Shown piece after piece: positions 27,348 through 51,387 of a stretch of 62,790 nt of DNA; position 1 is the stretch's first letter, and the number at the start of each line of letters is the position of its first letter. The translations under genes and the position numbers were made by a program. The notes under the pieces are model-generated. The model ran no database searches and was not told the DNA's origin. It saw only the letters and a list, made by a program, of their open reading frames with translations. Source of the DNA: Raillietiella orientalis (lineage: Eukaryota); contig JAYWIR010000114.1 of the NCBI GenBank assembly GCA_036172245.1, forward strand, positions 62,001 to 124,790, in the 5' to 3' direction.

Positions 27348-27363
27348 GAAAGGGGAGAGAGTC

Positions 27364-29298: not shown

Positions 29299-29304
29299 CA
29301 GGCA

Positions 29305-29447: not shown

Positions 29448-32400
29448 GGGGTAAATTTATTTTCTATAAAACATTCACGCTACAATCACATTCATACACT
29501 TTCACTTTTTCTCACTTATCACTGATCACTTGGGCACTTGTTCTTAAAGTTCACTTCTGGGCGTCTGAAAAGTCACTGCTCTACTTACCTTGGATCCGCT
29601 TGGGTTCGGAGACTTCCTTCTATCCTTCTCAGGATGTGTCGGTAGTTCCAAACTTGCACTCGTCCGCAGTTTCGGATGCCAATCTCCTTCTGGATCAACC
29701 CTTGCAGGATCTCCATCGGAGATATGGCGGTCCTCGTGGTCCTCATCTTCCACCACCGCACAAGGATGGCGGTGATGAAAAGGGCGATGGTCACTCTGAC
29801 CATGGGGTTGTAGCGTGAAACCGTTCCAGTTACCTGGAACACTCCTGCCAGAACGTCGATGGTCGAGGCGTTGTTCAGCCCGATGACCCTTTTCAGGGTT
29901 GTCCACTCGGATTGCAATGTGGGGCAGGTCAAGACATGTCTGTCTGAATCTAATCCACCACATGCTTTGCAGGTTTCTTCTTCTCGTCGTCCCGTGAAGA
30001 GCTTCATTCTCGTGCCGCATATAATCCCCCCATGATAAAACATGAGGAGATTGTCCTGTGTATCTGGTGGTAGGTCACTCCTCCATAGCACCGTACCGAT
30101 CGCTAGTGGGTTGAATCCACTGCTTGCGTATCGGTCGGCAGCATCTTGGAGGGCACTGTGGTCTTGTTCTTCCGTGATGATATCTTTCCTGTTCTTCTTC
30201 GTTACCCTGCACCACGCATGGTTAGGATGGCTTTTCCATACCTCGCGGGTCTTCAGGGTAACGGATCCACTCATCCTTTCCACGTGACGAAGTACCCGTG
30301 AATGATGAAGGTATCTTCGCCGTGTCCAGGATTCCAGTTCTCCGGATTTCCAGTTCTCTGGACCGCTGGCGTATCCAGCTCCTCGTGTCATCCTGTACGG
30401 GGAGCATCCAAGGGATAACCAGGATGGATTCCTCCTGCCAGAGTTCCTTGCTTCTCGGGATGATCTTGATTCCCTCGCTCTTGATCAATCTTTGTTTCCG
30501 CCTCCACGTTGGGTCGATGGTTGACCATTCGTCCACTCTGCCGACGAGCGCAGTCATCAGGCCCCTCGAGTTATTAATTAACAACGAGTATGCCCTATGC
30601 GCCGCGTACGGCCAGTCGTCCCAGTTGGAAGACATCTCCAGGATGTGTCGCACGTCCATGTTGTTCACGGCGTGTGCAGGCGACTTCATCCCGGTTCCTC
30701 CCTCCTCCCTCGGACGACAAAGTGGCTTCAGGCGTACTCTAGGACGGTATCCTCCCCACAGGGTCTTACTCTGCAGCTTTTCCACTTCTCGCTTGGTGTC
30801 TTTCGACATGTTGCTGAAGGCCGCTCCGAAAAGTACCTTCGGAAGGAGAACTCCATTCCAAAGGTTGGCCCTCTGCTTCATGTTGAAGTCCGAGCGCGTG
30901 TACTTCGCTCCTTCTTCAGATACTTTCCCCAGGATTTCCTTCCACAACAGTTGGGACGCGGATGCATCACCAATGTGGATACCTAGGTACTTGATCGTGT
31001 CCACCGTACGGAAACCTTCACTCACGAGTGTTGTGAGGTCCAGGATGCCGACGGGCAAGAGTTTGCTTTTCTGGACATTGATTTTAAGCCCCAATCCTTT
31101 CTCCATGAGCTCAACCACATGCAAGAAGCCTCGCTGATCTCTCTCCCCTTTGAGAAAGATGAGAAGATCGTCCGCGTAGGCGAGATGGGTGAGTCTCTGT
31201 TGGTCCACTTTGATTCCTCGGAGATACCCGGTTCTGTCGATGAACGACGAGAGGGCCTCCATGTAGATGACAAACAGCATCGGACTTAGCGCGTCGCCTT
31301 GACGGAATCCGCGTTCCATCCTGATGGCTGCTGTCGCTTCCCCATTGACGGTGATGCGGAATTCTTGGTCTTGTAGTACCATCCTGACGAAGTTGCTGAA
31401 GTATTCCGGGAGGCCCAGTCTTCCTAGAATCTTCAGCAGCATCCCATGGTCTACCGTGTCGAAGGCTTTCTCCATGTCAGTGAAGCTCAGCACCAAGTTC
31501 TCGCCTGTGTATCGGCTGAGTCCTATGGTGCCTTGTGCACACTTGACATTGTCCGACATGTGACGACCGGGCACCGCGCATGTCTGGATTGGAGATATAA
31601 GCCGCGGCATGACCTTGCCTAAGCGGTTGGCCCAGATCTTCGCCAACCACTTGGCATCGGAGTTCAGGATCGAGATTGGCCTTCATTGAGTGACCTGCGT
31701 GAGGTCACCGCCTTTCGGCAACAATCTCATCCGACTCTTGCTGAAGGACTTTGGTATTCTTCCTTCTTCTTTGATGCATAGCGTCAGCTGGAGGAACAGT
31801 CGCCGGTAGGCATGCAGATACCTCTGATAGTGGGAGATTGGAATACTATCAGGGCCTGCCGCCACATCCTTGCGAAGTTACTCGAACGCAGCTTTCACTT
31901 CTTCATCGGAGATATCTTCTTCCAGCATCTTCTTGCTCTTCTCGTCAATCCGGTTTTCCAGATGTTTCAGGAATCCTCGTTGATAGGTCTCGTCCGGTTG
32001 TTTCCTACGGAAGTGTTCTGCATAATGCCTGTGGAAGGCTTCTGCGATGTCTTCCGTCTTGCTCTTCGTCTGGCCTGCGTACTGGATGCTGAAGATATCT
32101 GTTGCCAGATTCTTCTTCTCCAGTACGCCAACTTCACCCTTGATGCTGTTGAAGACGTACCGGCTCTGATACTGTTGCCAGTACTTGGAGAGCGAGCGAT
32201 CTTGGATGTTGAGCTCGCGGTACGCGTCCTGCCTCAGTCTCTTGTCTCCAAACTGCATGTTGCAGAACAAATGGATGCGGTGCTTGAGGCTGTCCCAATC
32301 GGCGACCCTGCTGATGGTTGTAGTTTGCAGGATCACCTCCATCAGATCTTGATGATGGGGATGGGTCTCGAACCATTAAGGCATGGTGAGAATTGCCTCC

Positions 32401-34979
32401 CTCGTTGCCTTGCTTCGTCGAGGGTTTTCCGTCCGCAAGGTGAACCTCATCAACGGATGATCGGACACAGAGTGGGGAGTGTCTCGAAAACCGAGGACTC
32501 GGTTCCCAATGTCGGCACTGTAGAGGACGTGGTCGAGCGGCTTGTGGCTCGCAGTCAGCCACTGAAGTCCGAACTCGTCGGAAAGCCGCCGATACGCCTC
32601 CCTTCCTCTGACGTTCCGGGAATAGATGACTTCATCCAGGATGTTGAAGTCCCCAACGATGATGACGATGTCCTTCGCCTGCACTTTCTGGCGGAGGGCT
32701 TCATGAAGCACCTCCGCCCACTGGTGCTTTAGGTGGTGCGACCCGTAAACGTTCACCAGGAAGAGGTGGACGTTCGCGGACCAGGACAATCGTGAGACCA
32801 GAATTCTTCCAGGGACGGGACAGAAGACTTCCAGGATGGTGGCGGCAAGGCGGTTCTTGATTGCCGTTGCCACCTCCATGGTGTACCTCTGTCCCACGCT
32901 GGTGAACAGCTGGACGTTCATTCGTCTCTCCAATTCCAGGCTGATCTGCTGCCCCATCTCGTGGGTTTCCTGCAGGCAAACGATGTCGAAATGCCTGATC
33001 TTATGGGCTATTCTTCGTCTTCGCACCTGATCTTGCATTCCATTAACGTTCCAGGAGGCGATGGTCAGTCTCCCGGCTGTCGACAAGGATCAGGCCATAA
33101 AAGGTGGTATTAGTTTTTGGCCTTCCGCAGCTTCTTCTGGCGGGGAGACCTTTCTCTCCTTACCGCCGTCGAAGCTGGCTTCTCACTCCCGGCATCGCTC
33201 TCTGTGCCGGTGTGGTCTGTTGTATCGTTGTCTTGTTCGTTGGAGCGCTCTGGCTTGGCGACTGTTTTGCGCGGAAGGGTCTCCAGGGAGACCTTGGCGC
33301 AGTAGTTCCCCTTTACAATGCAGAGCTTGTTCTCCAGCCTGCCGCGCTCTTCCGGATCTATGAGGGCGTTGATTCCCTCCTGTGTTTCACCAATGCGTGA
33401 CAGGAGCTTCGCCTGCTGCACTTGGTTCACCTCCGTCTGTACCTCCTCCGCCAGCTTCACCACCTCCTCGGTGAGCTGCGCCGCCTCTTGCGAAGCCGGG
33501 GTAGCTTCGGTGATTTCCATCACCTCAGCTTCCGGCACTCCCTTCTGCGCAACAACCTCCTGCTGTTGCTCCACTACCTCGCCAACCGCCTGCTCGCCAA
33601 CCGCCTGTTCGCCACCCTGCTGCATCTCCTCGCCTACCTGCTTCTCGGCCTGTGCAGAGGAGGAGGATTCTGGCTCCCTCACGAGCCTCCTCCTCTTGCC
33701 GCCCTTCCCCACCTTAGTAAAGCCGTCCTCAGAAACAGGAGCGGCCTCCTTCGCCTTCCTCTGCTTCAGTGCTCTCTGAGGCTTGATCACCTCTTCGAGC
33801 ACTCGCGCCCTGACCGGTGAATGGATCCTCATCGTCCGGTAATTGGCAAACTCGGGACAGCACCATTTTGCGTGCCCTGGGGCCTTGCAAATTGAGCATA
33901 CCTCCGGCATGCTGCAATCACGGACTTGGTGGCCTTGCTTCCCACAGCGGAAGCATTTGGAACTTGGGCAGACGCCCTGTTTGTGTCCGAAGGATTTGCA
34001 ACCGTTGCAGAAAGCGGGTTGCGCCCTGTACCGCACAGAGACTCCCTGGTCATCCCCCTCGAAATGTATGGTCCCTGGAATCTGGGCATCCTATAACAGC
34101 TTTATCTTCACCGTCGCTTTTCCCGAAAAGATCTTCCCCGAGATGTTATGGAAGTTGCTGTCCAGTACCTCGCCGTACTGCGACACGCGTTTCCATACCG
34201 CCTTCTGTGTGATAAACGGCCCTAGCCCGCTCAGAAAAACGGTGGTGTACGGCATTTCGCCGACTCCACTCACCATTTTGCCCTGGATGTTGATTCCTTT
34301 TTCGATGAACTCCGCCAGGAGTTCATCGCACTCTGTGAAGATCGTGAACCCGAATGGCCCGGGCACGATCGCCTGCAACTTATCAACGTCTACCTGTTGC
34401 TTGTACAGCGCCAGGTAGACTTCCCGAATGTTATGCATTCGGATTAAACCGGTCTTCAACGTGACCGTCTTGACGTTTGGGCCCAACTTAACTATGGGCT
34501 CGTCAACTTCTTTGATCGGCCCGTACTCGGGCTTTCCGAATTTTCTCTACGGCTGGGTTGTTGCCGTCCCAGCCGCCACCGCCGCATAGGAAAACGTTGC
34601 CGCCGCCGGCGGCCGCCCCACGGTCGCAGCCGCCGCGCAAGATGGCGTCGCGTCATTAGCAATGGTTGGGCCTACGAGCCCTGCCGTTGCTAGGGGCGCT
34701 TCCGCCGTCGCCGCCGCCTTCGCAACCACCAACGTGGCCTGCCTTGCCTCCACCGCCGGTGTGGCGCCAGAAAAACACGATTGCCCAACCTCCATGGGCT
34801 GAGGCTTCTCCGTGGTTCCCATCCACCGCTGCTCTTGCATCTTGACGGGGTGCTGCTGCACCGCCGCCGGGGAGGGTCGCGACTCCTCCACCTTGGACTC
34901 CCTCTGGATGCTGCTGCTCCTGCTGCAGTCGCTGTGGGACGTACTGAGTAGCGCACTTACTGTTTTTTTTAACTATTCA
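29305..34979 (-). mobile_element. Array unit E3: full-length family B element including U4-like tail
   Basis: ORF1 ~34960-33110 (stops at 34547, 34091). ORF2 33098-29585 (stop at codon 3, also 32376, 31878, 31683). YADD intact. Confidence 0.95.
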
Positions 34980-35125
34980 CTTGCCCTCTCGGGGCACGCA
35001 AAAATTGCCGCGGCAGTGGTTTTACGCACTGCCTTGGCGGGGTATTGGGTAAAGTTTTGAACTAGCAATAATCGCGGCTCAGTCGCCTTCCTCGCCTACG
35101 ATTTTCTCCAAGTCCCACAAGGGGT
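34980..35125 (-). ncRNA. U4 snRNA-like module (A variant)
   Basis: Full 5' stem-loop ATCGT-A-GGC-GAG-GA-AG-GCGA-CT-GA-GCC-GCGAT, stem I TGCTAGT, Sm site, terminal TGCCC-CGAGA-GGGCA. Confidence 0.85.
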
Positions 35126-38100
35126 GGGGTAAATTTATTTTCTATAAAAATACAATTTTTGCATTCACACTCACATTCACTCTATCTTTACTCTTTGTCT
35201 CTCACTTTGAAGTCCTGGGGGGTTCACTAGAGTTCTGCTTTTACCTCAGGGTGGATTTCCATCTGGATGGTCCCGGGCGTCGTCCTCGATCCTCTTCAGG
35301 ATGAATCTGTACGTCCAGGCTTGGATGCGTCCACAATTCCTGATGCCGATCTCCTTCTTGATGAGTCCTTTCAGGATCTCCATCGAGGTTGCGGCTCTGC
35401 TGGCTCTTCTCATCTTCCACCACCGCACAAGTATGGCGGTGATGAAGAGGGCAATGGTCGTCCTCACCATGGGATTGTAACAGGGAACATTACCATTTCC
35501 CTGAAACATCCCGGCGAGGATCTCCATCGAGTTGTTCAGCAACAACGCGTAGGCCCTGTGCGCCGCATACGGCCAGTCATCCCAGTGAGTGGCTATGTCC
35601 AGGATGTGTCGCGTGTCCATGATTTCCATGGAATGTGCAGGCGACTTCATCCCGGAACCGCCTTCTTCCCTGGGACGACACAGAGGTTTGAGACGGACTC
35701 TTGGGCGATAATGGCCCCACAATGTTTTCCTCTGCAGCTTTTCTACTTCTCTTGTGGTTTCTTTATTCATTCGTGCGAAGGCCGCCCCGAAGAGTATCTT
35801 TGGTAGAAGTACTCCGTTCCACAGGTTGGCTCTTCGCTTCATGTTAAGGTCCACTCGAGTGTACTTCGCTGCTTCGTTGGCCGTTTTCCCCAGGATTTCC
35901 GTCCACAGCAGTTTCGACGCAGAGTCGTCGCCGATGTAGAGTCCCAGGTACTTAGCCGTGTCCACCGTACGGAATCCACTCCCCGTTAGAGTGGAGAGGT
36001 TCAGGATTCCGACGGGCAAAAGCTGGCTCTTTTGGGCATTGATTTTCAATCCCAGTCCCTGTTCCATGAGGTCGACCACATCCAGGAACGCTCCTTGATT
36101 CCTCTCTCCCTTGCTGAAGAAGAGGAGATCATCTGCGTATGCCAGATGGGTCAGGTGCTGACCATCAATGGAAATCCCTGATAGACGACCGCTTCTCTCG
36201 ATGTAAGAAGACAGCGCCTCCATGTATATGACGAACAGCATTTGACTTAGCGAGTCGCCCTGCCGGACTCCTCGTTCCATCCTAATTGCTGCCGTCTCTT
36301 GGCCGTTGATTTTGATACGGCAGTACTGGTTTTGGAGTACCGCCCTCACGAAGTTGCTGAAGTGTTCCGGAAGCCCAAGCTTCTCCAGAACATTCAGCAG
36401 CATCCCGTGGTCGATGGAGTCGAAGGCCTTCTCCATGTCGGTGAACACCAGTACCAGGTTCTCGCCGACGTATCGGCTGAGACCTACGATGGCCTGGGCA
36501 GAATTGACATTGTCAGACATGTATCGTCCTGGGACTGCACACGTCTGGACCGGAGAGATCAGCCTCGACATGACCCTGCCTAAGCGGTTGGACCAGATCT
36601 TCGCCAACCACTTGGCATCTCAGTTCAGGATCGAGATAGGCCTCCATTGATCGATCTGCGTGAGATCGCCTCCTTTTGGCAGCAATCTCATCCTGCTCTC
36701 GTAGAAGGATTCCGGAAGTCGTCCTTCTTCTCGGATGCAGAGTGTCAACTGGTGGAACAAACGCAGGTAGGCGTGCAGCTACCGCTGATAGTGCGAGATG
36801 GGTACACTATCAGGGCCTGCTGCCACATCCTTGCGAAGCTGCCCAAACGCAGTCTTCACTTCTTCCTCGGAGAACTCCTCCTCCAGTCTATTTCTTTGGA
36901 GGTCGTCCGTCCTCTTCTCGAGGTAACCCAAGAAGGCTTGCTGACTCGAGCGGCAGAGATCTTGTCGTCAGAAGTGTCTCGCGTAATGCCTGTGAAAGGC
37001 TTCCGCGATATCCTCCAACGTGTGTCGCTCTTGGCCGTCGCACTGGATGCAGAAGATATCTGTCGCCAGATTCCTCTTTTCCAGCACGCCGACCTCCCCT
37101 TTCATGTTCTGGAAGACGTACCGACTCTCGTATTGATCGAAGTACTTCGATAGGGAGCGATCTTGGATGTTCAGCTCCCGTTACGCTTCCTGCCTCATAC
37201 GCTTACAAAAATACTGCATATTGCAGAACAGATGGATCCTGTGCTTCAACCTGTCCCAGTCGGCGACTCTGTGGATGGTGGTTTCACGCAGAATCGCCTC
37301 GATGACCTCCTGGTGACAGAAAAGCGTTTCGAACCAGGCGGGCATGCAGATGAGCGCCGCCCTAATGGCCTTTTCCCTACGGGGATTTTCAGTGCGGAGT
37401 GTAAACCGTACCAATGGGTGATCGGACAACAGATGTGGAATGTCACGAAAACCCTGGATGCGGTTGTCTATCTCCGCACTGTGGAGGACGTGATCGATCG
37501 GCTTGTGGCTAGCTGTTCGCCAAAAAAGTCCGAACTCGTCGGACAGCCGCCGATACGCCGCTCTTCCCCTTGCATCCTGAGAATAGTTGATTTCCTGAAG
37601 GATGTTGAAATCCCCAGCGACGATGACTAGGTCCTTCGGTGCCACTCGTTTGCGGAGTTCTTCCTGCAGTTTCTCCGCGCACCGATGCTTGATCTTGTGT
37701 GGTCCGTAGACGTTCACCAGGAAGAGGTGAACGTTACTGGACCAGGACAGTCGCACGCCGATTACTCTGCCAGGTACCGGACAGAAGGTTTCCAAAATGG
37801 TGTGGGCGAGCCCGTTCTTGATGAGGATCGCCACCCCCATGGTCTTCTTCTGTCCCTCGCTGGCGAACAGTTGTCCGTCGAATCGGCGTTCCATCTCCAG
37901 GGCGTTCTGCTGCCCGAGACGGTGGATTTCTTGTAGGCACACCACATCCTGTCTTGCGATGGTCCGCATGACACTTTTTCTCTTTCCCTGGTCCGTCATT
38001 CCATTCACATTCCAGGAGGCGATGTTAATCCTCCTGGCACTGGACAGCGACGAGGCCATGAAAGGGGAGAGAGTCCTACTTGTTCTTGCGCGCCTTCCTT

Positions 38101-40009
38101 AACTTCTTCTGCTGGGGAGACTTGTTTAGTTTCCCCGTTGAAGAAGTGGGTTTTTCGCTACCGGCATCGCTCTCGGTGCCGGTGTGGTCGGTGGACTCGG
38201 GATCTTCTCCGGAGCGTTCCGCCTTGGCGATCACCTTGCGCGGGAGGGTCTCCAGGGAGACCGTCGCGCAGTAGACCGCCTTGACTTCCGAGAGCTGGGC
38301 CTCCAGATTCTCTCGCTCCGGCTCCGCAACCATACGGTTGACTTCGTCTTGAGCCTCGGAGATGCGGGTCAGGAGTTGCTCCTGTTGCGCCTCTGTCTGG
38401 CCTTGACGAACCTTCTACGCTAATTTGACCACCTCCTCGGTGAGTTGCAGGGCCTCCTGCGACTCCGGGGTGGGTTCCGGCATCTTCACCACTTCGTCTG
38501 TCACCTCCATCTTTTCGCCTTCCACTGCTGCAACCTCACGAGTAGGGGGGGGTTGTTGCTCCCTTACGAGCATCTTCCTCTTCCCCTTTTTCCCTATCTC
38601 GACGAGCCCGTCCGCCGAGACCGGAGCTGCCTCCCTCACCTTCTCTTGTTTCGCAAGCTGAGGTTTAAACACCTCAGCTAGCACCCTTTCCCTCACGGGG
38701 GATTCTCCACGGATTGTCCGGTAGTTAGCAAACTCCGGACAACTCCATTTGGCATGCCCGGGTTGTTTGCAGAACGAGCAAACTCCGGGCATGGTGCAAT
38801 TTCGGACCACGTGGCCCATCTTTCCGCACCGGAAACAGCGCACCTAGGACACGCGCCCATCCGGTGGCCAAAGTTTTTGCAGCCGGTGCAAAAGATCGGC
38901 TGCTGCCTGTATCGAATTGAGACGTCCTGCGACGCCTTGTCGATATGCACGTTTCCGGGGATTTGCGCCCCCTCCTTTAATTTTATCTTGGCGATCAGCT
39001 CGCCCGAGAAGATGTTTCCGGAGATGTTCTGGGTTTTCATCTCCAGAACCTCTCCGTATTGGGACAGGAAGTCCCACACCGTTTGTCTCTCGGTAAGGAT
39101 GCCAAGGCCATTCACGAAGACGGTCGTGTAAGGCATCTCGCCGATGCCTTGCACCATCTTCCCCTGGATATTGTTGCCCCTTTCGATGAGGGCCTCCTGC
39201 AGCTCCTCGCAGTCTGTATAAAGGAGAAATCCCGCTGAGTTCGGGATTATCGCCTGCAGCCGGTCAAAGTCCACATTCGTCTTGTAGAGAGCGCAGTACA
39301 CCTCCCTCACATTGTTGAACCAGATCAGTCCGGTTTTAAAAATTATCGGCTTGGACGCCGGGCTGAGTCGAACCATCGGCTCCTTCGTTCGAGTGATGAT
39401 TTCACTCGCCGGTTTGCCGAATGCTCTATTCGGTTGGGCAGAGGCCTGCCCCGCCGTCACCGCCGCATACGAAAAAGGCGGTTTCGCCGTCGCCGCCGAG
39501 CAAGATGGCGTCGCACCTTGCACTGTGTGCGCCGCGTGGACGCCCGCGGCTCCCGCCTGGGACGCCGCAGCCGCCGCTGCGGGCGCAACCCTCGTCGTCG
39601 CCGTCGCTGATGTCGCCGTAGGCGGGACCTTCGGCATCGCCGCCGCCGGCACGACCTTCCCCGCCGCGGGCGCGATCCTCGGCGTCGCCGCCGCGGGCAC
39701 GACCTCCATCGCCGTCGCCGCGGGCACGACCCTCGGCATCGCCGCCGCCGGCGCAGCAAAGCCTGCCGCGGGCGCGACCCTCGGAGTCGCCGCTGTCTCC
39801 TCGCCACTGCCGCATATTACCTCCATGTGTTCCTCCATGGGGGTCGACGGCTGCTCCACTTCTTCCTTGTGCCTCCTTGCGGCTGCCGTTGCTGCCGCGC
39901 TTCTTGTTTGGAGGACTTCCACCTCGGGTCCTTCGGCGCTGCTGCTGCTGCTGCTGTCGGGTATTTCCCTCGGTGGCACAGTCACTTCCACACTATTCTT
40001 TTCGAGGCA
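34980..40009 (-). mobile_element. Array unit E4: family A element with ~705-bp in-frame ORF2 deletion
   Basis: ORF1 ~40000-38076 (frameshift ~38843). ORF2 38059-35246 with stops; LLNNS is joined to MEILAG at 35527. Confidence 0.95.
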
Positions 40010-40155
40010 CTTGCCCTCTCGGGGCACGCAAAAATTGCCGCGGCAGTGGTTTTACGCACTGCCTTGGCGGGGTATTGGGTAAAGTTTTCAACTAGCAATA
40101 ATCGCGGCTCAGTCGCCTTCCTCGCCTACGATTTTCCCCAAGTCCCACAGGGGGT
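40010..40155 (-). ncRNA. U4 snRNA-like module (A variant, best preserved)
   Basis: Same elements as 34980-35125, with intact GTTGAAAACTTTACCCAATACCCCGCC. Confidence 0.88.
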
Positions 40156-43100
40156 GGGGTGAATTTATTTTCTATAAAAATACAATTTTCGCATTCACAC
40201 TCACATTCACTCTATGTTTACTCTTTGTCTCTCACTTTGAAGTCCTGGGGGGTTCACTAGAGTTCTGCTTTTACCTCAGGGTGGATTTCCAGCTGGATGG
40301 TCCCGGGCGTCGTCCTCGATCCTCTTCAGGATGAATCTGTACGTCCAGGCTTGGATGCGTCCACAATTCCTGATGCCGATCTCCTTCTTGATGAGTCCTT
40401 GCAGGATCTCCATCGGGGTTGCGGCTCTGCTGGCTCTTCTCATCTTCCACCACCGCACAAGTATGGCGGTGATGAAGAGGGCAATGGTCTTCCTCACCAT
40501 GGGATTGTAACAGGGAACATTACCATCTCCCTGAAACATCCCGGCGAGGATCTCCATCACGGAACTGGTCGTCATTCCAATGATCCTTTTCAGGATCAGC
40601 CAGTCGTGAAGGAGTGTGGGACACGTCAAGATGTCAAGTCTTGTATCGTTGTCACCACACGCCGTGCAGTCTCCGTCTTCCCGTCTTCTGGTGAAGTGCT
40701 TGAGTCTGGACCCGCTCAGGATACCTCCATGGTAAAACATCAGGAGGTTGTCCTGGGTGTCCGGCGGAAGGTCACTCCTCCAGAGCGTTGTGCCGATCGC
40801 CAACAGGTTGATGCGATCGCTCCCGTAGCGGTCGCCGGCTTCTTGGAGGGCACTGGTGTCCGTTTCTTCGTCTCTGATCATCTTCCGGAGGTTCTATTTG
40901 GTCACCCTCGACCACGCGAAGTCGTTGTGGTTAATCCACACCTCGCGGGTCTGGTGGGTGAACCTCCCTAACATCATCTCTATGTACCGGTGTACACGAG
41001 AATGATGTAGGTATCCTCCTCGGCGCCATTCCTGGATCCGTTGCAGGGTAACTCTGGGCCGCTGGTAGATCCAGCTTCTCGTGTCCGGAGGGACCGGAAG
41101 CATCCAGGGGATCACCAGGATGGACTCGTCCTGCCAGAGTTCCCTGCTTCTTGGCACGATCTTCATCTTGTGCTTTCGCACAAGCCGCTTTTTTCTTCTC
41201 TAGGTAGGGTCGATGGTGATCCATTCCCCTGCTCGGCCTAGCAGCGCAGTCATCAGGCCTTTCGAGTTGTTCAGCAACAACGCGTAGGCCCTGTGCGCCG
41301 CATACGGCCAGTCATCCTAGTGAGTGGCTATGTCCAGGGTGTGTCGCGTATCCATGATTTCCATGGAATGTGCAGGCGACTTCATCCCGGAACCGCCTTC
41401 TTCCCTGGGACGACACAGAGGTTTGAGACGTACTCTTGGGCGATAATGGCCCCACAAAGTTTTTCTCTGCAACTTTTCTACTTCTCTTGTGGTTTCTTTA
41501 TTCATTTGTGCGAAGGCCGCCCCGAAGAGTATCTTTGGTAGAAGTACTCCGTTCCACAGGTTGGCTCTTCGCTTCATGTTTAAGTCCACTCGAGTGTACT
41601 TCGCTGCTTTCTTGGCCGTTTACCCCAGGATTTCCGTCCACAGCAGTTTCGACGCAGAGTCGTCGCAGATGTAGACTCCCAGGTACTTGGCCGTGTCCAC
41701 CGTACGGAATCCACTCCCCGTTAGTGTGGAGAGGTTCAGGATTCCGACGGGCAAAAGCTGGTTCTTTTGGGCATTGATTTTCAAGCCCAGTCCCTGTTCC
41801 ATGAGGTCGACCACATCCAGGAACGCTCGTTGATTCCTCTCTCCCTTGATGAAGAAGAGGAGATCATCTGCGTATGCCAGATGGGTCAGGTGCTGACCAT
41901 CAATGGAAATCCCTGATAGACGACCGCTTCTCTCGATGTAAGAAGACAGCGCCTCCATGTATATGACGAACAGCATTGGACTTAGCGAGTCGCCCTGCAG
42001 GACTCCTCGTTCCATCCTAATTGCTGCCGTCTCTTGGCCGTTGATCTTGATACGGCAGTACTGGTTTTATAGTACCGCCCTCACGAAGTTGCTGAAGTGT
42101 TCCGGAAGCCCTAGCTTCTCCAGAACCTTTAGCAGCATCCCGTGGTCGATGGAGTCGAAGGCCTCCTCCATGTCGGTGAACACCAGCACCAGGTTCTCGC
42201 CAACGTATCGGCTGAGACCGACGGTGGCCTGGGCACACTTGACATTGTCAGACATGTGTCGTCCTGGGACTGCACACGTCTGGACCGGAGAGATCAGCCT
42301 CGACATGACCCTGCCTAAGCGGTAGGACCAGATCTTCGCCAACCACTTGGCATCTGAGTTTAGGATCGAGATAGGCCTCCATTAAGCGATCTGCGTGAGA
42401 TCGCCTCCTTCTGGCAGCAATCTCATCCTGCTCTCGTAGAAGGATTCCGGAAGTCGTCCTTCTTCTCGGATGCAGAGTGTGAACTGGTGGAACAAACGCA
42501 GGTAGGCGTGCAGGTACCGCTGATAGTGCGAGATGGGTACACTATCAGGGCCTGCTGCCACATAGTTGCGAAGCTGCCCAAACGCAGCCTTCACTTCTTC
42601 TTCGGATAACTACTCCTCCAGTCTACTTCTTTGGAGGTCGTCCGTCCTCTTCTCGAAGTAACATAGGAAGGCTTGCTGACTCGAGCGGCAGAGATCTTGT
42701 CGTCGGAAGTGTCTCGCGTAATGCCTGTGAAAGGCTTCCGCGATATCCTCCGACGTGTGCCGCTCTTGGCCGTCGTACTGGATGCAGAAGATATCTGTTG
42801 CCAGATTCCTCTTTTCCAGCACGCCAACCTCCCCTTTCGTGTTCTGGAAGACGTACCGACTCTCGTACTGATCGAAGTACTTCGAGAGGGAGCGATCTTG
42901 GATGTTCAGCTCCCGGTACGCTTCCTGCCTCATGCGCTTACAGAAGTACTGCATATTGCAGAACAGATGGATCCTGTGCTTCAACCTGTCCCAGTCGGCG
43001 AGTCTGCGGATGCTGGTGTCCCGCATAATCGCCTCGATGGCCTCCTGGTGACAGGGAAGCGTTTCGAACCAGGCGGGCATGCAGATGAGCGCCGCCCTAA

Positions 43101-43809
43101 TGGCCTTCTCCCTACGGGGATTTTCAGTGCGGAGTGTAAACCGTACCAATGGGTGATCGGACAACAGATGTGGAATGTCACGAAAACCCTGGATGCGGTT
43201 GTCTATCTCCGCACTGTGGAGGACGTGATCGATCGGCTTGTGGCTAGCTGTTCGCCACAAAAGTCCGAACTCGTCGGACAGCCGCCGATACGCTGCTCTT
43301 ACCCTTGCATCCTGAGAATACTTGATTTCGTCAAGGATGTTGAAATCCCCTGCGACGATGACTATGTCCTTCGGTGCCACTCGTTTGCGGAGTTCTTCTT
43401 GCAGTTTCTCCGCGCACCGATGCTTGATCTTGTGCGGTCCGTAGACGTTCACCAGGAAGAGGTGAACGTTACTGGAACAGGACAGTCGCACGCCAATTAC
43501 TCTGCGAGGTACCGGACAGAAGGTTTCCAAAATGGTGTGGGCGAGCTCGTTCTTGATGAGGATCGCCACCCCCATGGTCTTCTTCTGTCCCTCGCTGGCG
43601 AACAGTTGTCCGTCGAATCGGCGTTCCATCTCCAGGGCGTTGTGTTGCCCGAGACGGTGGATTTCTTGGAGGCACACCACATTAAATTTTGCGATGGTCC
43701 GCATGATGATCTTTCTCTTTCCCTGGTCCGTCAGTCCATTCACATTCCAGGAGGCGATGTTAATCCTCCTGGCACTGGACAGCGACGAGGCCATGAAAAG
43801 GGGGGAGTC

Positions 43810-45717
43810 CTACTTCACCTTTCTTGCCTTCCTTAGCTTCTTCTGCTGGGGAGACTTGTTCAGTTTTCCTGCTGAAGAAGTGGGTTTTTCACTGCCGGCA
43901 TCACTCTCGGTGCCGGTGTGATCAGTGGACTCCTGTTCGTCCACAGAGCGTTCCGCCTTGGCGACCACCTTGCGCGGAAGGGTCTCCAGCGAGACCGTCG
44001 CACAGAATGCAGCCTTCAGGTCGCCCAGCTGGTCCTCCAGCTTTTCCCGCTCTGGTTCTACAACCGTGCGGTTTACATCGTCTTGGACCTCGCAGACGCG
44101 GTTTAGGATTTTTGCCTGTTCCGCCTCCGGTTGGCCCTGGCGAACCTCCTCTGCCAGTTTAACCACCTCCTCGGAAAGTTGCAGGGCCTCCTGCGTCTCC
44201 GGGACTGGTTCTGGCGTCTTCTCCTCCTTCTCCGTTTCCTCCGCCACCTCCATAATCTCGCCTACCGCCGCTTCAACTACCGGGGTTTGAGGAATCTGTT
44301 GCTCCCATGCGAGCATCTTCCTTTTCCTTTTCTTCCCCACCTCCACGAAGCCGTCTGTCGAAACCGGAGCGGCCTCTCTTGTTTTCCTCTGCTTTGCTAG
44401 CTGAGGTTTGATTACCTCAGCTAGCACCCTTTCCCTTACCGGGGACTCTCCTCTAATCGTCCGGTAGTTTGCATACTCCGGACAACTCCATTTCGCATGC
44501 CCTGGTTGCTTGCAAAAGGGGCAAAGCTCGGGCATGCTACAGTTCCGGACCTGGTGGCCCTGTTTCCCGCACCTGAAGCAGCGAGATCTAGGGCAGGCAC
44601 CCATCCGGTGGCCAAAGTCCTTGCAACCGAGACAGAAGATCGGTTGCTGGCGGTACCTGACGTTCACCTCTTGCGAGGTTTCGTCAATGTGCACTAAACC
44701 GGGGATTTGGGCACCTTCTTTAAGCTTAATTTTGGCGATTACTTCGCCCGAGAAGATGTCTCCAGAGATGTTCTGGAAGCTTACATCCAGAACCTCTCCG
44801 TATTTCTCCAGGAAATCCCACACCGTTTCTTGTTCGGTGAAGATTCCCACTCCGCTGAGGTGGACGGTGGTGTAAGGCATTTCTCCTACGCCTTGTACCA
44901 TTTTCCCCTGAATATTGATTCCCTTTTCGATTAGGGCCTCCCGCAATTCATCGCAGTCCGTGTACAGTGTAAAACCTGACGTGCTGGGAATGATCGCTTG
45001 GAGACGATCAAAGTCGACGTTGGTTTTAAAAAGAGCACAGTACACCTCTCTTACATTGTTAAACCGGATCAATCCGGTTTTAAACATAATTGGTTTCGAC
45101 GCTGGACTTAGGCGAACCATTGGTTCTTTGCATCGCGTGATGCGTCCAGTCGTCGGCTTCTTGAAAGTTCGGTTTGGCTGGGCAGAGGCCTGCCCCGCCG
45201 TAACCGCCGCATACGAAAACGGCTTTGTAGCCGAACCCGAACAAGATGACGTCGCCATGTACGCCGCGTGGACGCCCGGGGCTCCCGCCTGGGACGCCGC
45301 CGCCGCCGCTGCGGGCGCAACCCTCATCGTCGCCGTCGCCGATGTCGCCGTAGGCGGGACCTTCGGCATCGCCGCCGCCGGCACGACCTTCCCCGCCGCG
45401 GGCGCGATCCTCGGCGTCGCCGCCGCGGGCACGACCTCCATCGCCGTCGCCGCGGGCACGACCCTCGGCATCGCCGCCGCCGGCGCAGCAAAGCCTGCCG
45501 CGGGAGCGACCCTCGGCGTCGCCGCTGCCTCCTCGCCACTGCCGCATATTACCTCCATGTGTTCTTCCATGGGGGTCGACGGCTGCTCCACTCCTTGTAT
45601 GTGCCTCCTTGCGGCTGCCGTTGCTGCCGCACTTCTTGTTTGGAGGACTTCCACCTCGGGTCCTTCGGCGCTGCTGCTGCTGTCGGGTATTTCCCTCGGT
45701 GGCACAGTCACTTCCAC
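43810..45717 (-). CDS. E5 ORF1 (RRM-like + 3 CCHC)
   Basis: 635-codon open frame, first ATG at 45570. CLGCKDFGHRMGAC, CFRCGKQGHQVRNC, CPFCKQPGHAKWSC. Confidence 0.9.
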   Translation of the reverse strand: MEVTVPPREIPDSSSSAEGPEVEVLQTRSAAATAAARRHIQGVEQPSTPMEEHMEVICGSGEEAAATPRVAPAAGFAAPAAAMPRVVPAATAMEVVPAAATPRIAPAAGKVVPAAAMPKVPPTATSATATMRVAPAAAAAASQAGAPGVHAAYMATSSCSGSATKPFSYAAVTAGQASAQPNRTFKKPTTGRITRCKEPMVRLSPASKPIMFKTGLIRFNNVREVYCALFKTNVDFDRLQAIIPSTSGFTLYTDCDELREALIEKGINIQGKMVQGVGEMPYTTVHLSGVGIFTEQETVWDFLEKYGEVLDVSFQNISGDIFSGEVIAKIKLKEGAQIPGLVHIDETSQEVNVRYRQQPIFCLGCKDFGHRMGACPRSRCFRCGKQGHQVRNCSMPELCPFCKQPGHAKWSCPEYANYRTIRGESPVRERVLAEVIKPQLAKQRKTREAAPVSTDGFVEVGKKRKRKMLAWEQQIPQTPVVEAAVGEIMEVAEETEKEEKTPEPVPETQEALQLSEEVVKLAEEVRQGQPEAEQAKILNRVCEVQDDVNRTVVEPEREKLEDQLGDLKAAFCATVSLETLPRKVVAKAERSVDEQESTDHTGTESDAGSEKPTSSAGKLNKSPQQKKLRKARKVK

Positions 45718-45735
45718 ACTAATCTTCGGCAGGCA

Positions 45736-45878
45736 CTTGCCCTGTCAGGGCACACAAAAATTGCCTCGGCAGTGGTTTTACGCACTGCCTTGGCGGGGTA
45801 TTGGGTAAAGTTTTCAACTAGCAATAATCGCGGCTCAGTCGCCTTCCTCGCCTATTTTCCCCAGGTCCCACAAGGGGT
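45736..45878 (-). ncRNA. U4 snRNA-like module (B variant)
   Basis: U4 core, Sm site, terminal TGCCCT-GAC-AGGGCA. 3-nt deletion in the 5' stem-loop base. Confidence 0.85.
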
Positions 45879-46015
45879 GAAGTAAATTTATTTTCTATAA
45901 AACATTCCCGCTACAATCACATTCATACACTTTCACTTTTCCTCACTTGTCACCGGTCACTTTGGCACTTGTGCTTAAAGTTCACTTCTGGGCGTCTGAA
46001 AAGTCACTGCTTTAC

Positions 46016-49000
46016 TTACCTTGGATCCGCTTGGGTTCGGAGACTTCCTTCTATCCTTCTCAGGATGTGTCGGTAGTTCCAAACTTGAACTCGTACGCAG
46101 TTTCGGATGCCAATCTCCTTCTGGATCAACCCTTGCAGGATCTCCATCGGAGATATGGCAGTCCTCGTGGACCTCATCTTCCACCACCGCACAAGGATGG
46201 CGGTGATGAAAAGGGCGATGGTCACTCTGACCATGGGTTTTAGCGTGGAACTGTTCCAGTTCCCTGGAACATTCCTGCCAGAACGTCCATGGTCGAGGCG
46301 TTGTTCAGCCCGATGACCCTTTTCAGGGTTGTCCACTCGGATTGCAATGTGGGGCAGGTCAAGACGTTTCTACCTGAATCCAATCCACCACATGCTTTGC
46401 AGGTTTCTTCTTCTCGTCGTCCCGTGAAGATCTTCATTCTCGTGCCGCACAGGATCCCCCCATGATAAAACATGAGGAGATTGTCCTGTGTATCCGGTGG
46501 TAGGTCACTCCTCCATAGCACCGTACCGATCGCTAGTGGATTGAATCCACTGCTTGCGTATCGGTCGGCAGCATCTTGGAGGGCTCTGTGGTCTTGTTCT
46601 TCCCTGATGATGTCCTTCCTGTTCTTCTTCGTTACCCTGGACCTCGCATGGTTAGGATGGCTTTTCCATACCTCGCGGGTCTTCAGGGTAACGGATCCAC
46701 TCATCCTTTCCACGTGACGAAGTACCCGTGAATGATGAAGGTATCTTCGCCGTGTCCAGGATTCCAATTCTCCGAAGGTAACTCTGGACCGCTGGCGTAT
46801 CCAGCTCCTCGTGTCATCCTGTACGGGGAGCATCCAAGGGATAACCAGGATGGATTCCTCCTGCCAGAGTTCCTTGCTTCTCGGGATGATCTTGATTCCC
46901 TCGCTCTTGATCAATCTTTGTTTCCGCCTCCACGTTGGGTCGATGGTTGAACATTCGTCCACTCTGCCGACGAGCGGAGTCATCAGGCCCCTCGAGTTAT
47001 TAATTAACAACGAGTATGCCCTATGCGCCGCGTACGGCCAGTCGTCCCAGTTGGAAGACATCTCCAGGATGTGTCGCACGTCCATGTTGTTCACGGCGTG
47101 TGCAGGCGACTTCATCCCGGTTCCTCCCTCCTCCCTCGGACGACAAAGTGGCTTCAGGCGTACTCTCGGACGGTATCCTCCCCACAGGGTCTTCCTCTGT
47201 AGCTTTTCCACTTCTCGCTTGGTGTCTTTCGACATGTTGCTGAAGGCCGCTCCGAAAAGTACCTTCGGAAGGAGAACTCCATTCCAAAGGTTGGCCCTCT
47301 GCTTCATGTTGAAGTCCGAGCGCGTGTACTTCGCTCCTTCTTCAGATACTTTCCCCAGGATTTCCTTCCACAACAGTTGGGACGCGGATGCATCACCAAT
47401 GTGGATACCTAGGTACTTGATCGTGTCCACCGTACGGAAACCTTCACTCACGAGTGTTGTGAGGTCCAGGATGCCGACGGGCAAGAGTTTGCTTTTCTGG
47501 GCATTGATTTTAAGCCCCAATCCTTTCTCCATGAGCTCAACCACATGCAAGAAGCCTCGCTGATCTCTCTCCCCTTTGAGAAAGAAGAGAAGGTCGTTCG
47601 CGTAGGCGAGATGGGTGAGTCTCTGTTGGTCAACTTTGATTCCTCGGAGATACCCGGTTCTGTCGATGAACGAAGAGAGGGCCTCGATGTAGATGACAAA
47701 CAGCATCGGACTTAGCGCGTCGCCCTGACGGACTCCGCGTTCCATCCTGATGGCTGCTGTCGCTTCCCCATTGACGGTGATGCGGAATTCTTGGTCTTCT
47801 AGTACCATCCTGACGAAGTTGCTGAAGTATTCCGGGAGGCCCAGTCTTCCTAGAATCTTCAGCAGCATCCCATGGTCTACCGTGTCGAAGGCTTTCTCCA
47901 TGTCAGTGAAGCTCAGCACCAAGTTCTCGCCTGTGTATCGGCTGAGTCCTATGGTGGCTTGAGCACACTTGACATTGTCCGACATGTGACGACCGGGCAC
48001 CGCACATGTCTGGACCGGAGATATAAGCCGCGGCATGACCTTGCCTAAGCGGTTGGCCCAAATCTTCGCCAACCACTTGGCATCGGAGTTCAAGATCGAG
48101 ATTGGCCTCCATTGAGTGACCTGCGTGAGGTCACCGCCTTTCGGCAACAATCTCATCCGACTCTTGCTGAAGGACTTTGGTATTCTTCCTTCTTCTTTGA
48201 TGCATAGCGTCAGCTGGAGGAACAGTCGCCGGTAGGCATGCAGATACCTCTGATAGTGGGAGATTGGAATACTATCAGGGCCTGCCGTCACATCCTTGCG
48301 ATGTTCCTCGAACCCAGCTTTCACTTCTTCATCGGAGATATGTTCTTCCAGCATCTTCTTGCTCTTTACGTCAATCCGGTTTTCCAGATGTTTCAGGAAT
48401 CCTCGTTGATAGATCTCGTCCGGTTGTTTCCTACGGAAGTGTTCTGCATAATGCCTGTAGAAGGCTTCTGCGATGTCTTCCGTCTTGCTCTTCATCTGGC
48501 CTGCGTACTGGATGCTGAAGATATCTGTTGCCAGATTCTTCTTCTCCAGTACGCCAACTTCACCATTGATGCTGTTGAAGGCGAACCGGCTCTGGTACTG
48601 TTGCCAGTACTTGGAGAGCGAGCGATCTTGAATGTTGAGCTCGCGGTACGCATCCTGCCTCAGTCTCTTGACTCCAAACTGCATGTTGCAGAACAAATGG
48701 ATGCCGTGCTTGAGGCTGTCCGAATCGGCGACCCTGCTGATGGTTGTAGTTTGCAGGATCTCCTCCATCAGATCTTGATGATGGGGATGGGTCTCGAACC
48801 ATTGGGGCATGGTGAGAATTGCTTCCCTCGTTGCCTTGCTTCGTAGAGGGTTTTCCGTCCGCAAGGTGAACCTCATCAACGGATGATCGGACACAGAGTG
48901 AGGAGTGTCTCGAAAACCGAGGACTCGGTTCCCAATGTCGGCGCTGTAGAGGACGTGGTCGATCGGCTTGTGGCTCGCAGTCAGCCACTGGAGTCCGAAC

Positions 49001-49524
49001 TCGTCGGAAAGCCGCCGATACGCCTCCCTTCCTCTGACGTCTCGGGAATAGATGACTTCATCCAGGAGGTTGAAGTCCCCAACGATGATGACGATGTCCT
49101 TCGCCTGCACTTTTTGGCGGAGGGCTTCATGAAGCACTTCCGCGCACTGGTGCTTTAGGTGGTGCGGCCCGTAAACGTTCACCAGGAAGAGGTGACCGTT
49201 CGCGGACCAGGACAATCGTGAGACGAGAATTCTTCCAGGGACGGGACAGAAGACTTCCAGGATGGTGGCGGCAAGGTGCTTCTTGATTGCCGTTGCCACC
49301 CCCATGGTGTGCCTCTGTCCCACGCTGGTGAACAGTTGGACGTTCATTCGTCTCTCCAATTCCAGGCTGATCTGCTGCCCCATCTCGTGGGTTTCCCGCA
49401 GGCAAACGATGTCGAAGTGCCTGATCTTGTGGGCTATTCTTCGTCTTCGCACTGAATCTTGCATTCCATTAACGTTCCAGGAGGCGATGGTCAGTCTCCC
49501 GGCTGTCGACAAGGATGAGGCCAT
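46016..49524 (-). CDS. E6 ORF2 pol (APE endonuclease, reverse transcriptase, C-terminal Zn finger), nearly intact, ~1170 aa if repaired
   Basis: 1094-aa open frame 46240-49524, with the last codons shifted at ~46240. Catalytic YADD is altered to YAND and LQE to LRE, so this copy is probably inactive. Confidence 0.9.
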
Positions 49525-51387
49525 AAAGGGGTGGTGTTAATTTTTGGCCTTCCTCAGCTTCTTTAGGCGGAGAGACCTTTCTCTCCTTACCGCCGTCGAA
49601 GCTGGCTTCTCACTCCCGGCATCGCTCTCTGTGCCGGTGTGGTCTGTCGTATCATTGTCGTGTTCGCTGGAGCGCTCGAGCTTGGCGACTGTTTTGCGCG
49701 GAAGGTTCTCCAGGGAGACCTTGGCGCAGTAGTTCGCCTTTACGATGCAGAGCTTGTTCTCCAGCCTGCCGCGTTCTTCTGGTTCTATGAGGGCGTTGAT
49801 TCCCTCCTGTGTTTCACCAATGCGTGACAGGATCTTCGCCTGCTGCACTTGGTTCACCTCCGTCTGTACCTCCTCCGCCAGCTTCACCACCTCCTCGGTG
49901 AGCTGCGCCGCCTATTGCGAAGCCGGGGTAGCTTCGGTGATTTCCATCACTTCAGCTTCCGGCACTCCCTTCTGCGCAACAACCTCCTGCTGTTGCTCCA
50001 CTACCTCGCCAACCGCCTGCTCGCCAACCTGCTGCATCTCCTCGCCTACCTGCTTCTCGGCCTGTTCAGAGGAGGAGGATTCGGGCTCCCTCACGGGCAT
50101 CCTCCTCTTTAGCCATTCCCCACCGTCGTAAAGCCGTCCTCAGAAACGGGAGCGGCCTCCTTCGCCTTCCTCTGCTTCAGTGCTATCTGAGGCTTGATCA
50201 CCTCTTCGAGCACTCGCGCCCTGTCCGGTGAATTGCCCCTCATCGTCCGGTAATTGGCAAACTCGGAACAGCACCATTTTGCGTGCCCTGGGGCCTTGCA
50301 AAATGAGCAAACCTCCGGCATGCTGCAATCCCGGACTTGGTGGCCTTGCTTCCCACAGCGGAAGCATTTCAATTTGGGACAGACACGCTGCCTGTGGCCA
50401 ACTGATTTGCAACCGTTGCAGAAAACGGGTTGCGCCCTGTACCTCACAGAGACTCCTTGATCGTCACCCTCGAAATGGATGGTTCCAGGAATCTGAGCAT
50501 CCTCCAACAGCTTCATCCTTACCGTCGCTTCTCCCGAAAAGATCTTCCCCGAAATGTTGTGGAAATTGCTGTCCAGTACCTCGCCGTACTGCGACAGGCG
50601 TTTCCAGACCGCCTTCTGTGTGATGAACGGCCCTAGCCCGCTCAGAAAAACGGTGGTGTACGGCATTTCGCCGACTCCACACACCATTTTACCCTGGATG
50701 TTGATCCCTTTTTCGATGAACTCCTGGCGGAGTTCATCGCACTCTGTGTAGATCGTGAACCCGAATGGCCCGAACACGATCGCCTGCAACTTATCAAAGT
50801 CCACCTGTTGCTTGTACAGCGCCAGGTAGAGTTCCCGAATGTTATGCATTCGGATTAAACCGGTCTTGAACGTGACCGTCTTGACGTTTGGGCCCAAATT
50901 GACTATGGGCTCATCAACGTCCGTGATCGCCCCGGACTCGGGCTTTCCAAATTTTCTCTGCGGCTGGGTTGTTGCCGTCCCAGCCTCCACCGCCGCATAG
51001 GAAAAAGTCGCCGCCGCCGGCGGCCGCCCCACGGTCGCAGCCGCCTCGCAAGATGCCGTCGCGTGATTAGCAACGGTTGGGCCTAGGAGCCCTGCCGTTG
51101 CTAGGGACGCTTCCGCCGTCGCCGTCGTCTTCGCAGCCACCCCCGTTGCCTGCCTTGTCTCCACCACCGGTGTGGCGCCAGAAACACACGATTGCCCTAC
51201 CTCCATAGGTTGAGGCTTCTCCGTGGTCCCCATCCACCGCTGCTCTTGCATCTTGACGGGGTGCTGCTGCACCGCCGCCTGGGAGGGTCGCGACTCCTCC
51301 ACCTTGGACTCCCTCTGGCTGCTGCTGCTGCTGCTGCAGTCGCTGTGGGACGTCCTGAGTACCGTACTCACTGTTTTTCACTATTCA

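Follow-up and report, generated by a model that had tools for sequence, protein, structure and literature searches.

We analysed a window of 62,790 nucleotides (nt) from Raillietiella orientalis (assembly GCA_036172245.1, contig JAYWIR010000114.1), the window being this whole stretch, in which a minus-strand hairpin lies inside a cassette that is derived from U4 small nuclear RNA (snRNA) and tied to the 3' side of long interspersed nuclear elements (LINEs). The minus strand of 40101-40132 reads ATCGTAGGCGAGGAAGGCGACTGAGCCGCGAT (reverse complement), and this hairpin corresponds to the 5' stem-loop of a full-length module resembling U4 snRNA. A preliminary description had divided it, within 40100..40135, into stems, bulges and a loop, next to a vertebrate U4 hairpin quoted for comparison. 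The segmentation matched the minus-strand sequence exactly, and the quoted hairpin was sound, as canonical U4 locus L005 differed from it by one loop letter. The hairpin is made of the following parts.

40101-40132, minus strand: kink-turn (K-turn) hairpin of the A type, homologue of the U4 5' stem-loop (sequence, Rfam, folding, random-placement test)
40132-40128 with 40105-40101, minus strand: basal stem, 5 base pairs (bp)
40127, minus strand: 1-nt bulge
40126-40124 with 40108-40106, minus strand: canonical stem (C-stem), 3 bp, GGC/GCC
40123-40121, minus strand: 3-nt bulge, GAG
40120/40109 and 40119/40110, minus strand: tandem G.A/A.G pairs
40118-40117 with 40112-40111, minus strand: non-canonical stem (NC stem), 2 bp, AG/CU
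40116-40113, minus strand: GCGA loop

The sequence geometry of a K-turn (C-stem, 3-nt bulge, tandem G.A/A.G pairs and NC stem) was present in all six U4-like modules of the window, where the G.A pairs are presumably sheared. The loop was GCGA in each of them, a GNRA tetraloop with a G-C closing pair, as previously claimed. Folding of the isolated A-type hairpin returned the same stems in the minimum free energy (MFE) structure, at -9.7 kcal/mol (z -1.09).

Rfam searches assigned the module around this hairpin to U4 (RF00015; 40013-40152, minus strand, 75.6 bits, E 5.4e-15; gathering score 46 bits). Six matches to this model were found, scoring 53.5-75.6 bits and each covering model positions 1-138, with neighbouring modules 5.0-5.7 kb apart. 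The stretches between modules are minus-strand non-long-terminal-repeat retrotransposons, that is LINEs, arranged head to tail and belonging to two families, fam1 and fam2. The whole cassette measures ~177 nt and comes in two variants. The A variant has a CGT, a C in the bulge of the central hairpin and its own 3' hairpin loop; the B variant is without CGT, has an A in the central hairpin bulge and carries a different 3' hairpin loop. The cassettes and modules of the window are listed below.

40008-40184, minus strand: A-type U4-derived cassette, 3' end of fam2 copy 40013-45739 (RF00015 75.6 bits, junction alignment, identity comparison)
40153-40184, minus strand: leader of this cassette, ~32 nt, TATA-like/AATAAA
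40013-40152, minus strand: U4-like module of this A-type cassette
40008-40012, minus strand: terminal AAGTG of this cassette
34983-35124, minus strand: A-type U4-like module, 3' end of fam2 copy 34983-40012 (RF00015 68.9 bits)
45740-45877, minus strand: B-type U4-like module without CGT, 3' end of fam1 copy 45740-51391 (RF00015 61.3 bits)
51392-51529, minus strand: B-type U4-like module, 3' end of fam1 copy 51392-57092 (RF00015 60.5 bits)
57093-57230, minus strand: B-type U4-like module with five private loop changes and a central hairpin longer by an A-U pair (RF00015 63.0 bits)
29309-29442, minus strand: B-type U4-like module with the lowest score, in which a G-to-A change breaks a 3' hairpin pair (RF00015 53.5 bits)
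23670-23712, minus strand: truncated A-type cassette, cut within the K-turn loop and fused to a fragment of the ORF1 (open reading frame 1) region of another LINE copy

The absence of CGT from B variants, which had been reported before, holds for 4/6 copies and removes three of the five basal pairs. A 33-nt central pattern, made of the stem I strand and the central single-stranded region (W read as T), was matched in 5/6 modules, copy 34983 having one change. The Sm-site motif AATTTTTG was invariant in 6/6 modules and the 3' hairpin that follows it forms in five, with one mismatch in copy 29309. The U6-pairing 5' end of the CTTTGCGCAG type (extended U4/U6 stem II) was found in none of the six modules, and no canonical U4 5' piece was detected anywhere in the window, where one-mismatch hits occurred at chance level and on the opposite strand. 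By eye, two short module segments could still pair with U6. In the MFE structure of the A-type module, the 5' region (GGG..UUGGG, 40134-40146) pairs with the invariant central CCCAA..CCC (40069-40079) and closes a junction around the K-turn hairpin; its B-type counterpart is limited to GGGG with CCCC, and no covariation supporting this pairing was found. The leader holds TTTTATAG...AATAAATT...CCCCA, combining a TATA-like box, whose first T lies 22 nt upstream of the Rfam start, with AATAAA. It is found before each module (for example at 45878-45909) and is near-invariant across both LINE families.

Rfam searches of 1-29300 with E up to 1 returned no further U4. Two sub-threshold hits in this region, mir-547 at 13457-13511 (27 bits, gathering score 90) and the Mnt internal ribosome entry site at 8141-8252 (21.5 bits, gathering score 100), are most likely due to chance.

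The fam1 units extend over 29309-34982, 45740-51391, 51392-57092 and from 57093 to the window end, and are 95-97% alike; the fam2 units (23670-29308, 34983-40012 and 40013-45739) are 88-98% alike. The two families share ~72-73% identity across most of the body and their units are interleaved along the array. Pfam analysis detected a CCHC knuckle in ORF1, and an APE endonuclease and a reverse transcriptase (RT) in ORF2.

46240-49524, minus strand: fam1 ORF2, 1094 amino acids (aa), with APE at residues 14-214 and RT at residues 461-709 (Pfam)
50109-51251, minus strand: ORF1 of fam1 copy 45740-51391, 380 aa, with a CCHC zinc knuckle (Pfam)
39839-40007, minus strand: X-type 5' untranslated region (5'UTR) of fam2 copy 34983-40012, with a (CAG)n run; ORF1 starts at 39838

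The reading frame at 46240-49524 is the sole uninterrupted ORF2 of the window. Its nearest Atlas clusters have the composition APE+RVT_1+zf-RVT, and the protein relatives of the LINE (20 matches among 6617 candidates) showed at most 28% identity and an L1-type APE+RT+zf-RVT architecture; zf-RVT was not detected in the fam1 ORF2. The CCHC motif of ORF1 and the APE and RT domains of ORF2 suggest that these LINEs are L1/Tx1-like.

To which LINE the cassette belongs was addressed by comparing the junctions between elements. Alignment A1 of six junctions distinguished two types of 3'UTR, two types of 5'UTR (X and Y) and the two module variants. The A-type cassette followed a fam2 3'UTR at 3/3 junctions, including the truncated cassette at 23670, and the B-type cassette followed fam1 at 4/4, so that the variant matched the upstream family at all seven junctions; no association with the downstream family was seen in the A1 junctions. 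The differences between A and B extend into the 3' hairpin, and none of the six full cassettes was an A/B chimera. Each complete junction held exactly one cassette (6/6), and all six were precise. The 5'UTR of the next LINE abuts the terminal AAGTG of the module, its ORF1 starting 174 nt further on, and the junction alignment revealed no poly(A) run at any junction. Because the variant follows the upstream family at every junction, we regard the cassette as the 3'-terminal part of the LINE that precedes it.

Between the two LINE families, no part is conserved better than the cassette. A 100-nt window over U4 was 98% identical between fam1 and fam2, against at most 86% elsewhere. Identity between families amounted to 89-94% in the cassette, 51-59% in the adjacent 200 nt of the 3'UTR and 70-75% in a 1.5-kb segment of ORF2, and the excess in the cassette was significant in 8/8 pairs (binomial P <=1e-7). 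This contrast reflects one of three things: strong constraint in active lineages, recent exchange of cassettes, or target DNA derived from the host.

Canonical U4 sequences were collected by scanning metagenomes with the central 33 nt of the module. The 66 loci recovered, all from other eukaryotes, were either canonical U4 genes or truncated pieces resembling pseudogenes, and none of them held a U4 module of the LINE type. Enough upstream sequence was available for 54 matches, 50 of which have a canonical 5' part; all 50 combine a CTTTGCGCAG-type 5' end with a U at position 3 of the K-turn bulge. Exact scans of the genome and viral contig collections with the element hairpin and with the central pattern gave 0 hits each. 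Two 5'-truncated U4 pieces in this set, in L009 and in the second match of L036, start at the same position, CCGAGG just past the hairpin loop. They lie on unrelated contigs with different upstream sequence, and no large ORFs were found near them; they may be retropseudogenes or mark a common insertion site.

Alignment A2 (MAFFT) contained the six modules and 15 canonical U4 sequences, drawn from 31 distinct ones of full length. Because the basal stem and the central hairpin of modules and canonical U4 are wrongly aligned in A2, only the six hairpin pairs with unambiguous columns were counted. All 126 cells of these pairs were standard pairs, whereas slid controls were 31-57% paired, and the covariation score of 0.729 compared with 0.199 in shuffles (0/500 shuffles reached 0.729). 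Two pair types occurred in modules only and in all six of them: G-C at columns 30-49, the middle pair of the C-stem, and A-U at columns 37-45, the first NC pair. The proposal that both stems covary relative to canonical U4 was thus borne out. Covariation in these stems is also seen among the canonical U4 genes (A-U/G-C and C-G/A-U/U-A), and covariation against vertebrate U4 alone therefore proves nothing about the element. Two hairpin lineages of canonical U4 were recognised among L001-L066, namely GCC..GG..CC..GGC and ACC..UC..GA..GGU, with AUC/GAU and AAC/GUU variants.

Sixteen of 143 columns were substituted among the six copies of the element, and one of these sixteen was paired or G.A when ~6 were expected (binomial P 0.005); restricted to the U4 body, the count was 1/11 (P 0.02). 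The preliminary description had proposed that an identical loop sequence in host U4, together with changes falling equally in stems and loops, would speak against selection on structure. The helices were found to be spared, and the hairpin itself had zero substitutions in six copies. The same description had pointed to the 57089 module (the 57093 copy here) as one in which changes concentrate in loops and extend a stem. Both parts agree with our analysis: the five private changes all lie at positions that are unpaired elsewhere, and two of them replace a C/C mismatch by A-U, giving an 8-bp stem (-19.9 against -17.5 kcal/mol). Helix sparing and kept pairs support the proposed selection on RNA structure, but do not separate it from inheritance from the host U4. 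Thermodynamic stability was dropped as a line of evidence, since module z-scores of -1.5 and -2.0 are no more telling than the -0.9 of canonical U4.

A third version of the cassette came from a DNA run of the same organism. Three DNA runs of one study (X1-X3) were compared with 39900-40300 of the window. Runs X2 and X3 yielded only matches of 18-21 nt to simple sequence; several X1 contigs carry the leader with differing upstream sequence. X1 record 3 (232 nt) aligned without gaps to 40008-40171 with 23 differences, 19 of which were among those listed, and 13 of these 19 fell inside the 32-nt hairpin (41% divergence, against about 5% in the rest of the module). In the C-stem, 40125 with 40107 changed from G-C to C-G. 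In the NC stem, 40117 with 40112 changed from G-C to C-G and 40118 with 40111 from A-U to U.G, and in the basal stem a change at 40128 turned U.G into C-G. In total, four pairs carried changes, on both sides in three cases, without any being broken: each of the ten pairs remained a standard one, and no change touched the four G.A bases. The hairpin has six more differences, which fall in the single bulge, in the K-turn bulge (now GCU) and in the loop (now UUUA). When 13 changes were placed at random, the ten pairs and the G.A bases were spared with a probability of 2.1e-5 (2,000,000 trials). Of the six remaining listed differences, five lie in the central loop, two of them making the same A-U pair as copy 57093, and one is at a single-stranded base.

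In record 3 the non-canonical 5' region and the leader persist, with at most four further differences and no gap in 40130-40171, and the gapless alignment of this contig through the non-canonical 5' region led us to reject the idea that it represents host U4. After AAGTG it continues, by eye, into sequence like a third kind of LINE 5'UTR. We read record 3 as the probable cassette of a third LINE family; on that reading, the hairpin would have undergone turnover inside the cassette lineage without loss of its fold. X1 record 5 (180 nt) has both C-stem changes and two further differences over the 51 nt of 40081-40131, with flanks that do not resemble the window; this contig may belong to another LINE family or to the host's own U4. 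Both contigs that span and differ at the middle C-stem pair (records 3 and 5) have the two changes, 40107 and 40125, together.

The canonical U4 5' stem-loop, which is bound by Snu13/15.5K and then Prp31, occupies the same place within a full-length U4-like RNA and resembles the module in its 5-bp basal stem and 1-nt bulge (A type), 3-bp C-stem, 3-nt bulge, tandem G.A/A.G pairs and 2-bp NC stem. It differs in the middle C-stem pair (G-C in the module, C-G in canonical U4), in the first NC pair (A-U instead of G-C or U-A), in the loop (a GNRA tetraloop instead of a pentaloop) and, beyond the hairpin, in the U6-pairing 5' end, which is not conserved in the module RNA. A further difference lies in the K-turn bulge, whose protruding base at position 3 is G in 6/6 modules and U in 50/50 canonical 5' parts. 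The preliminary description had stated that the K-turn recognised by Snu13/15.5K remains; the tandem G.A pairs and the length of the bulge are indeed kept, but the base at position 3 is not. Snu13p/15.5K was reported to have a strong preference for U at this position, where mutations are deleterious, and A or G is described as favourable at position 2, L30 accepting G (passages of PMC1874613). In the A and B hairpins alike, position 2 is A and position 3 is G; binding of Snu13 to them is therefore doubtful, to judge from the bulge. The third cassette version in record 3 has a U at position 3. Next to the tandem G.A pairs the modules have a Watson-Crick pair, and according to the abstract of PMC4382518 such a pair defines a class of K-turns that fold only with protein. 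The module K-turn would, by this pair, fall in the protein-dependent class.

Collectively, these data lead us to favour, with slightly better than even confidence, a reading in which a U4-derived cassette, with the hairpin as its K-turn stem-loop, serves as the 3'-terminal domain of an L1/Tx1-like LINE lineage. Selection on RNA structure is supported, while the partner and the purpose are what we infer. The cassette would have been captured once, for example by read-through into an adjoining U4 gene, after which its U6-pairing 5' end would have decayed. Active elements would have kept the rest because the LINE RNA would lack poly(A) and end in a folded snRNA-like domain composed of the K-turn hairpin, the central hairpin, the Sm-site motif AATTTTTG and the 3' hairpin. 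Such a domain could define and protect the RNA 3' end and act as the start of target-primed reverse transcription by the RT of the element, with new copies integrating just 3' of an existing cassette and thereby building arrays. The K-turn geometry would be kept for a protein partner, which might be a weakly bound Snu13, some other protein of the L7Ae type or proteins of the element itself. A bolder proposal, which we put forward tentatively and consider rather unlikely, is that the LINE uses captured U4 as its 3' domain together with the host small nuclear ribonucleoprotein (snRNP) machinery, with a Sm ring on the invariant Sm-site motif and, bound to a retuned K-turn, a protein of the L7Ae type, in place of poly(A). 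If it were true, a snRNP-type domain would replace poly(A) in 3'-end formation, RNA stability and nuclear return, the cassette would mark the next integration spot, the element thereby making its own landing pad, and the pair-preserving turnover of the hairpin (13/32 against about 5% elsewhere) would amount to tuning of host-protein binding.

Several observations weigh against the cassette being a selected 3' domain of the LINE. Within families it is no better conserved than its flanks (7/7 pairs, P 0.28-0.99); this result adds no support, because dead copies would show the same, and the case for constraint rests wholly on the contrast between families and on one contig. The linkage of variant and family comes from seven junctions with two types only, has a chance probability of 1/35 if the junctions are independent, and would be inflated by tandem duplication. 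The window is without an array end, a solo copy or a target-site duplication, and the AATAAA just upstream of the module could terminate the mRNA before the cassette. The B variant, which is without three of five basal pairs, belongs to the family holding the sole intact ORF2; its isolated hairpin has a z-score of -0.04, with 84/200 shuffles folding equally well or better, and is absent from the MFE structure of the full B module. The z-score of the A hairpin is itself modest, at -1.09. The G at bulge position 3 runs counter to the preference of Snu13p/15.5K for U, and if record 5 is host U4, most of the hairpin covariation was inherited.

The main rival explanation makes the cassette a remnant of the target site: site-specific LINEs would have inserted into an array of variant U4 genes or of repeats derived from U4, which would leave the cassette as flanking host DNA under no selection in the LINE. 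We judge this improbable overall, yet it is the simplest account of the identity between families, since a highly identical cassette with sharp borders resembles flanking target DNA and no excess conservation is seen within families. Interleaved families each followed by an snRNA are known for Utopia in U2 of Phytophthora (passages of PMC4640811), the Tx1 clade is described as rich in target-specific families, including those of U2, U5 and satellites (passages of PMC4494074), and the CGT difference, lying near the onset of clear U4 homology, could be a family-specific junction. No split target is seen, however, and the 5' end of the LINE follows the cassette directly, with neither a spacer nor a U4 5' piece in between. 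One cassette occurs at 6/6 junctions, never two in a row or none, and its type tracks the upstream family at 7/7 and differs on the two sides of 3/6 elements, unlike a duplicated target. The boundary at the mature snRNA end is what would be expected of the end of a retrotransposed RNA. That modules are working variant genes, the organism's own tandem U4 cluster with spacers filled by LINEs, appears very improbable to us. All six exceed the Rfam gathering score, 32/33 positions of the stem I strand and central region agree with the canonical pattern and the Sm-site motif AATTTTTG is invariant, but their first 20 nt are without the CTTTGCGCAG-type U6-pairing sequence of the 50/50 canonical parts, bulge position 3 holds a G where all 50 canonical parts have U, 4/6 copies are without the basal stem, and the spacer would be LINE and nothing else.

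Two further alternatives link the module to the downstream element. It is known that the 3' promoter of HeT-A in Drosophila telomeres drives the next element, and the cassette could likewise be an snRNA-type transcription unit retained at the 3' terminus of each LINE and acting as a promoter in tandem, with the hairpin in the transcribed leader. The ~32-nt TTTTATAG...AATAAATT segment kept in both families, when the rest of the 3'UTR is at 51-59%, the placement of the first T of its TATA box 22 nt upstream of the Rfam-defined start, the 5'UTR of just 174 nt ahead of ORF1 and the strict head-to-tail arrays all fit this idea. We nevertheless hold it to be quite unlikely as a full explanation, for the AATAAA may be a poly(A) signal instead and the conservation of the Sm-site motif and of the K-turn geometry is left unexplained; a tandem-promoter role of the TATA-like leader is compatible with the cassette being a LINE tail. 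In a template-switch chimera, the RT would have jumped from the 5' end of the LINE RNA to U4, so that the module would belong to the downstream element. A full-length snRNA-like module does end exactly where the LINE 5'UTR starts, and U6/L1 chimeras with full-length sense U6 are documented (passages of bioRxiv 10.1101/2025.02.02.635956). This origin strikes us as scarcely credible here, with a module type independent of the downstream family, a module without the canonical mature 5' end, and a conserved leader, common to other contigs, that copying of mature U4 RNA would not yield.

The association of LINEs with snRNA has precedents. Keno (Tx1 clade, APE) and Utopia (restriction-like endonuclease, RLE) are LINEs targeting U2 snRNA genes, and Phytophthora U2 arrays hold several Utopia families (passages of PMC4640811). 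As in our window, these are LINEs tied to a spliceosomal snRNA at their 3' side with families interleaved in one array, and Keno shares the APE-type endonuclease. They differ in that their snRNA is a 3' fragment with a fixed internal start, whereas U4 is near full length here, varies with the upstream element and is followed at its 3' end by the next element. LINE 3' transduction and the structured 3' tails of 'stringent' LINEs offer another comparison. Like the cassette, these involve a carried or structured 3' terminus, and no poly(A) is seen at the junctions here; unlike a transduced one-off flank, a whole snRNA-like domain is conserved between families that are ~28% divergent. Non-spliceosomal RNAs of the Sm class include yeast telomerase RNA, with its Sm site, and the HSURs (U RNAs of herpesvirus saimiri). 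These, like the module, have a Sm-site motif followed by a 3' hairpin, but theirs is an isolated Sm site, while the module is a near-complete U4 copy with a putative Sm site. SINEUs are short interspersed nuclear elements (SINEs) with heads derived from U1 or U2, mobilised by Tx1-Mar (passages of PMC4494074). They share with the cassette an snRNA sequence inside a retroelement and a link to a Tx1-type LINE; their snRNA is the 5' head of a non-autonomous SINE, whereas here it is U4-derived and forms the 3' end of an autonomous LINE.

The snRNA targets named in the consulted passages of PMC4640811 are U2, U1 and U6 only, to which those of PMC4494074 add U5; the snRNA-linked transposons described in these two sources thus concern U2, U1, U6 and U5. 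In the PMC and bioRxiv papers that we searched, we found no report of a LINE tied to U4, nor of an autonomous LINE with a near-complete snRNA as a conserved 3' domain. Retroelements linked to snRNA are known as insertions into U1, U2, U5 and U6 genes or as SINE heads. If the cassette works in the element, it would represent a poly(A)-independent way of finishing and protecting LINE RNA through snRNP mimicry, and a natural experiment on the drift of a K-turn, in its stems, loop and protruding base, with the fold kept. If it is target DNA only, the window still records a U4-associated array of site-specific LINEs, and a known strategy would have gained a new target.

Every LINE copy of 23670-62761 has at least one shortened reading frame. 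ORF1 measures 380 aa in copy 45740-51391 and 576-589 aa in other copies (576 aa in copy 57093-62761), and the ORF2 pieces of copies other than 45740-51391 measure 394-621 aa. No clean end of the array is seen in the window, because 1-23669 holds reversed or rearranged LINE fragments and an AT-rich stretch. LINE fragments in the opposite orientation occupy ~1-10.5 kb, with an RT piece at 1058-1762 and 82% identity to fam2 over 8402-10499; ~10.5-18 kb is AT-rich (37-43% GC) and without LINE similarity, and 18173-23625 consists of rearranged LINE fragments. Compared with the neighbouring fam2 copy, copy 34983-40012 is missing ~700 nt (unit positions 547-1249). The (CAG)n run at 39938-39962 and at equivalent 5'UTR places is variable in length, one X1 contig being 6 nt shorter at this run.

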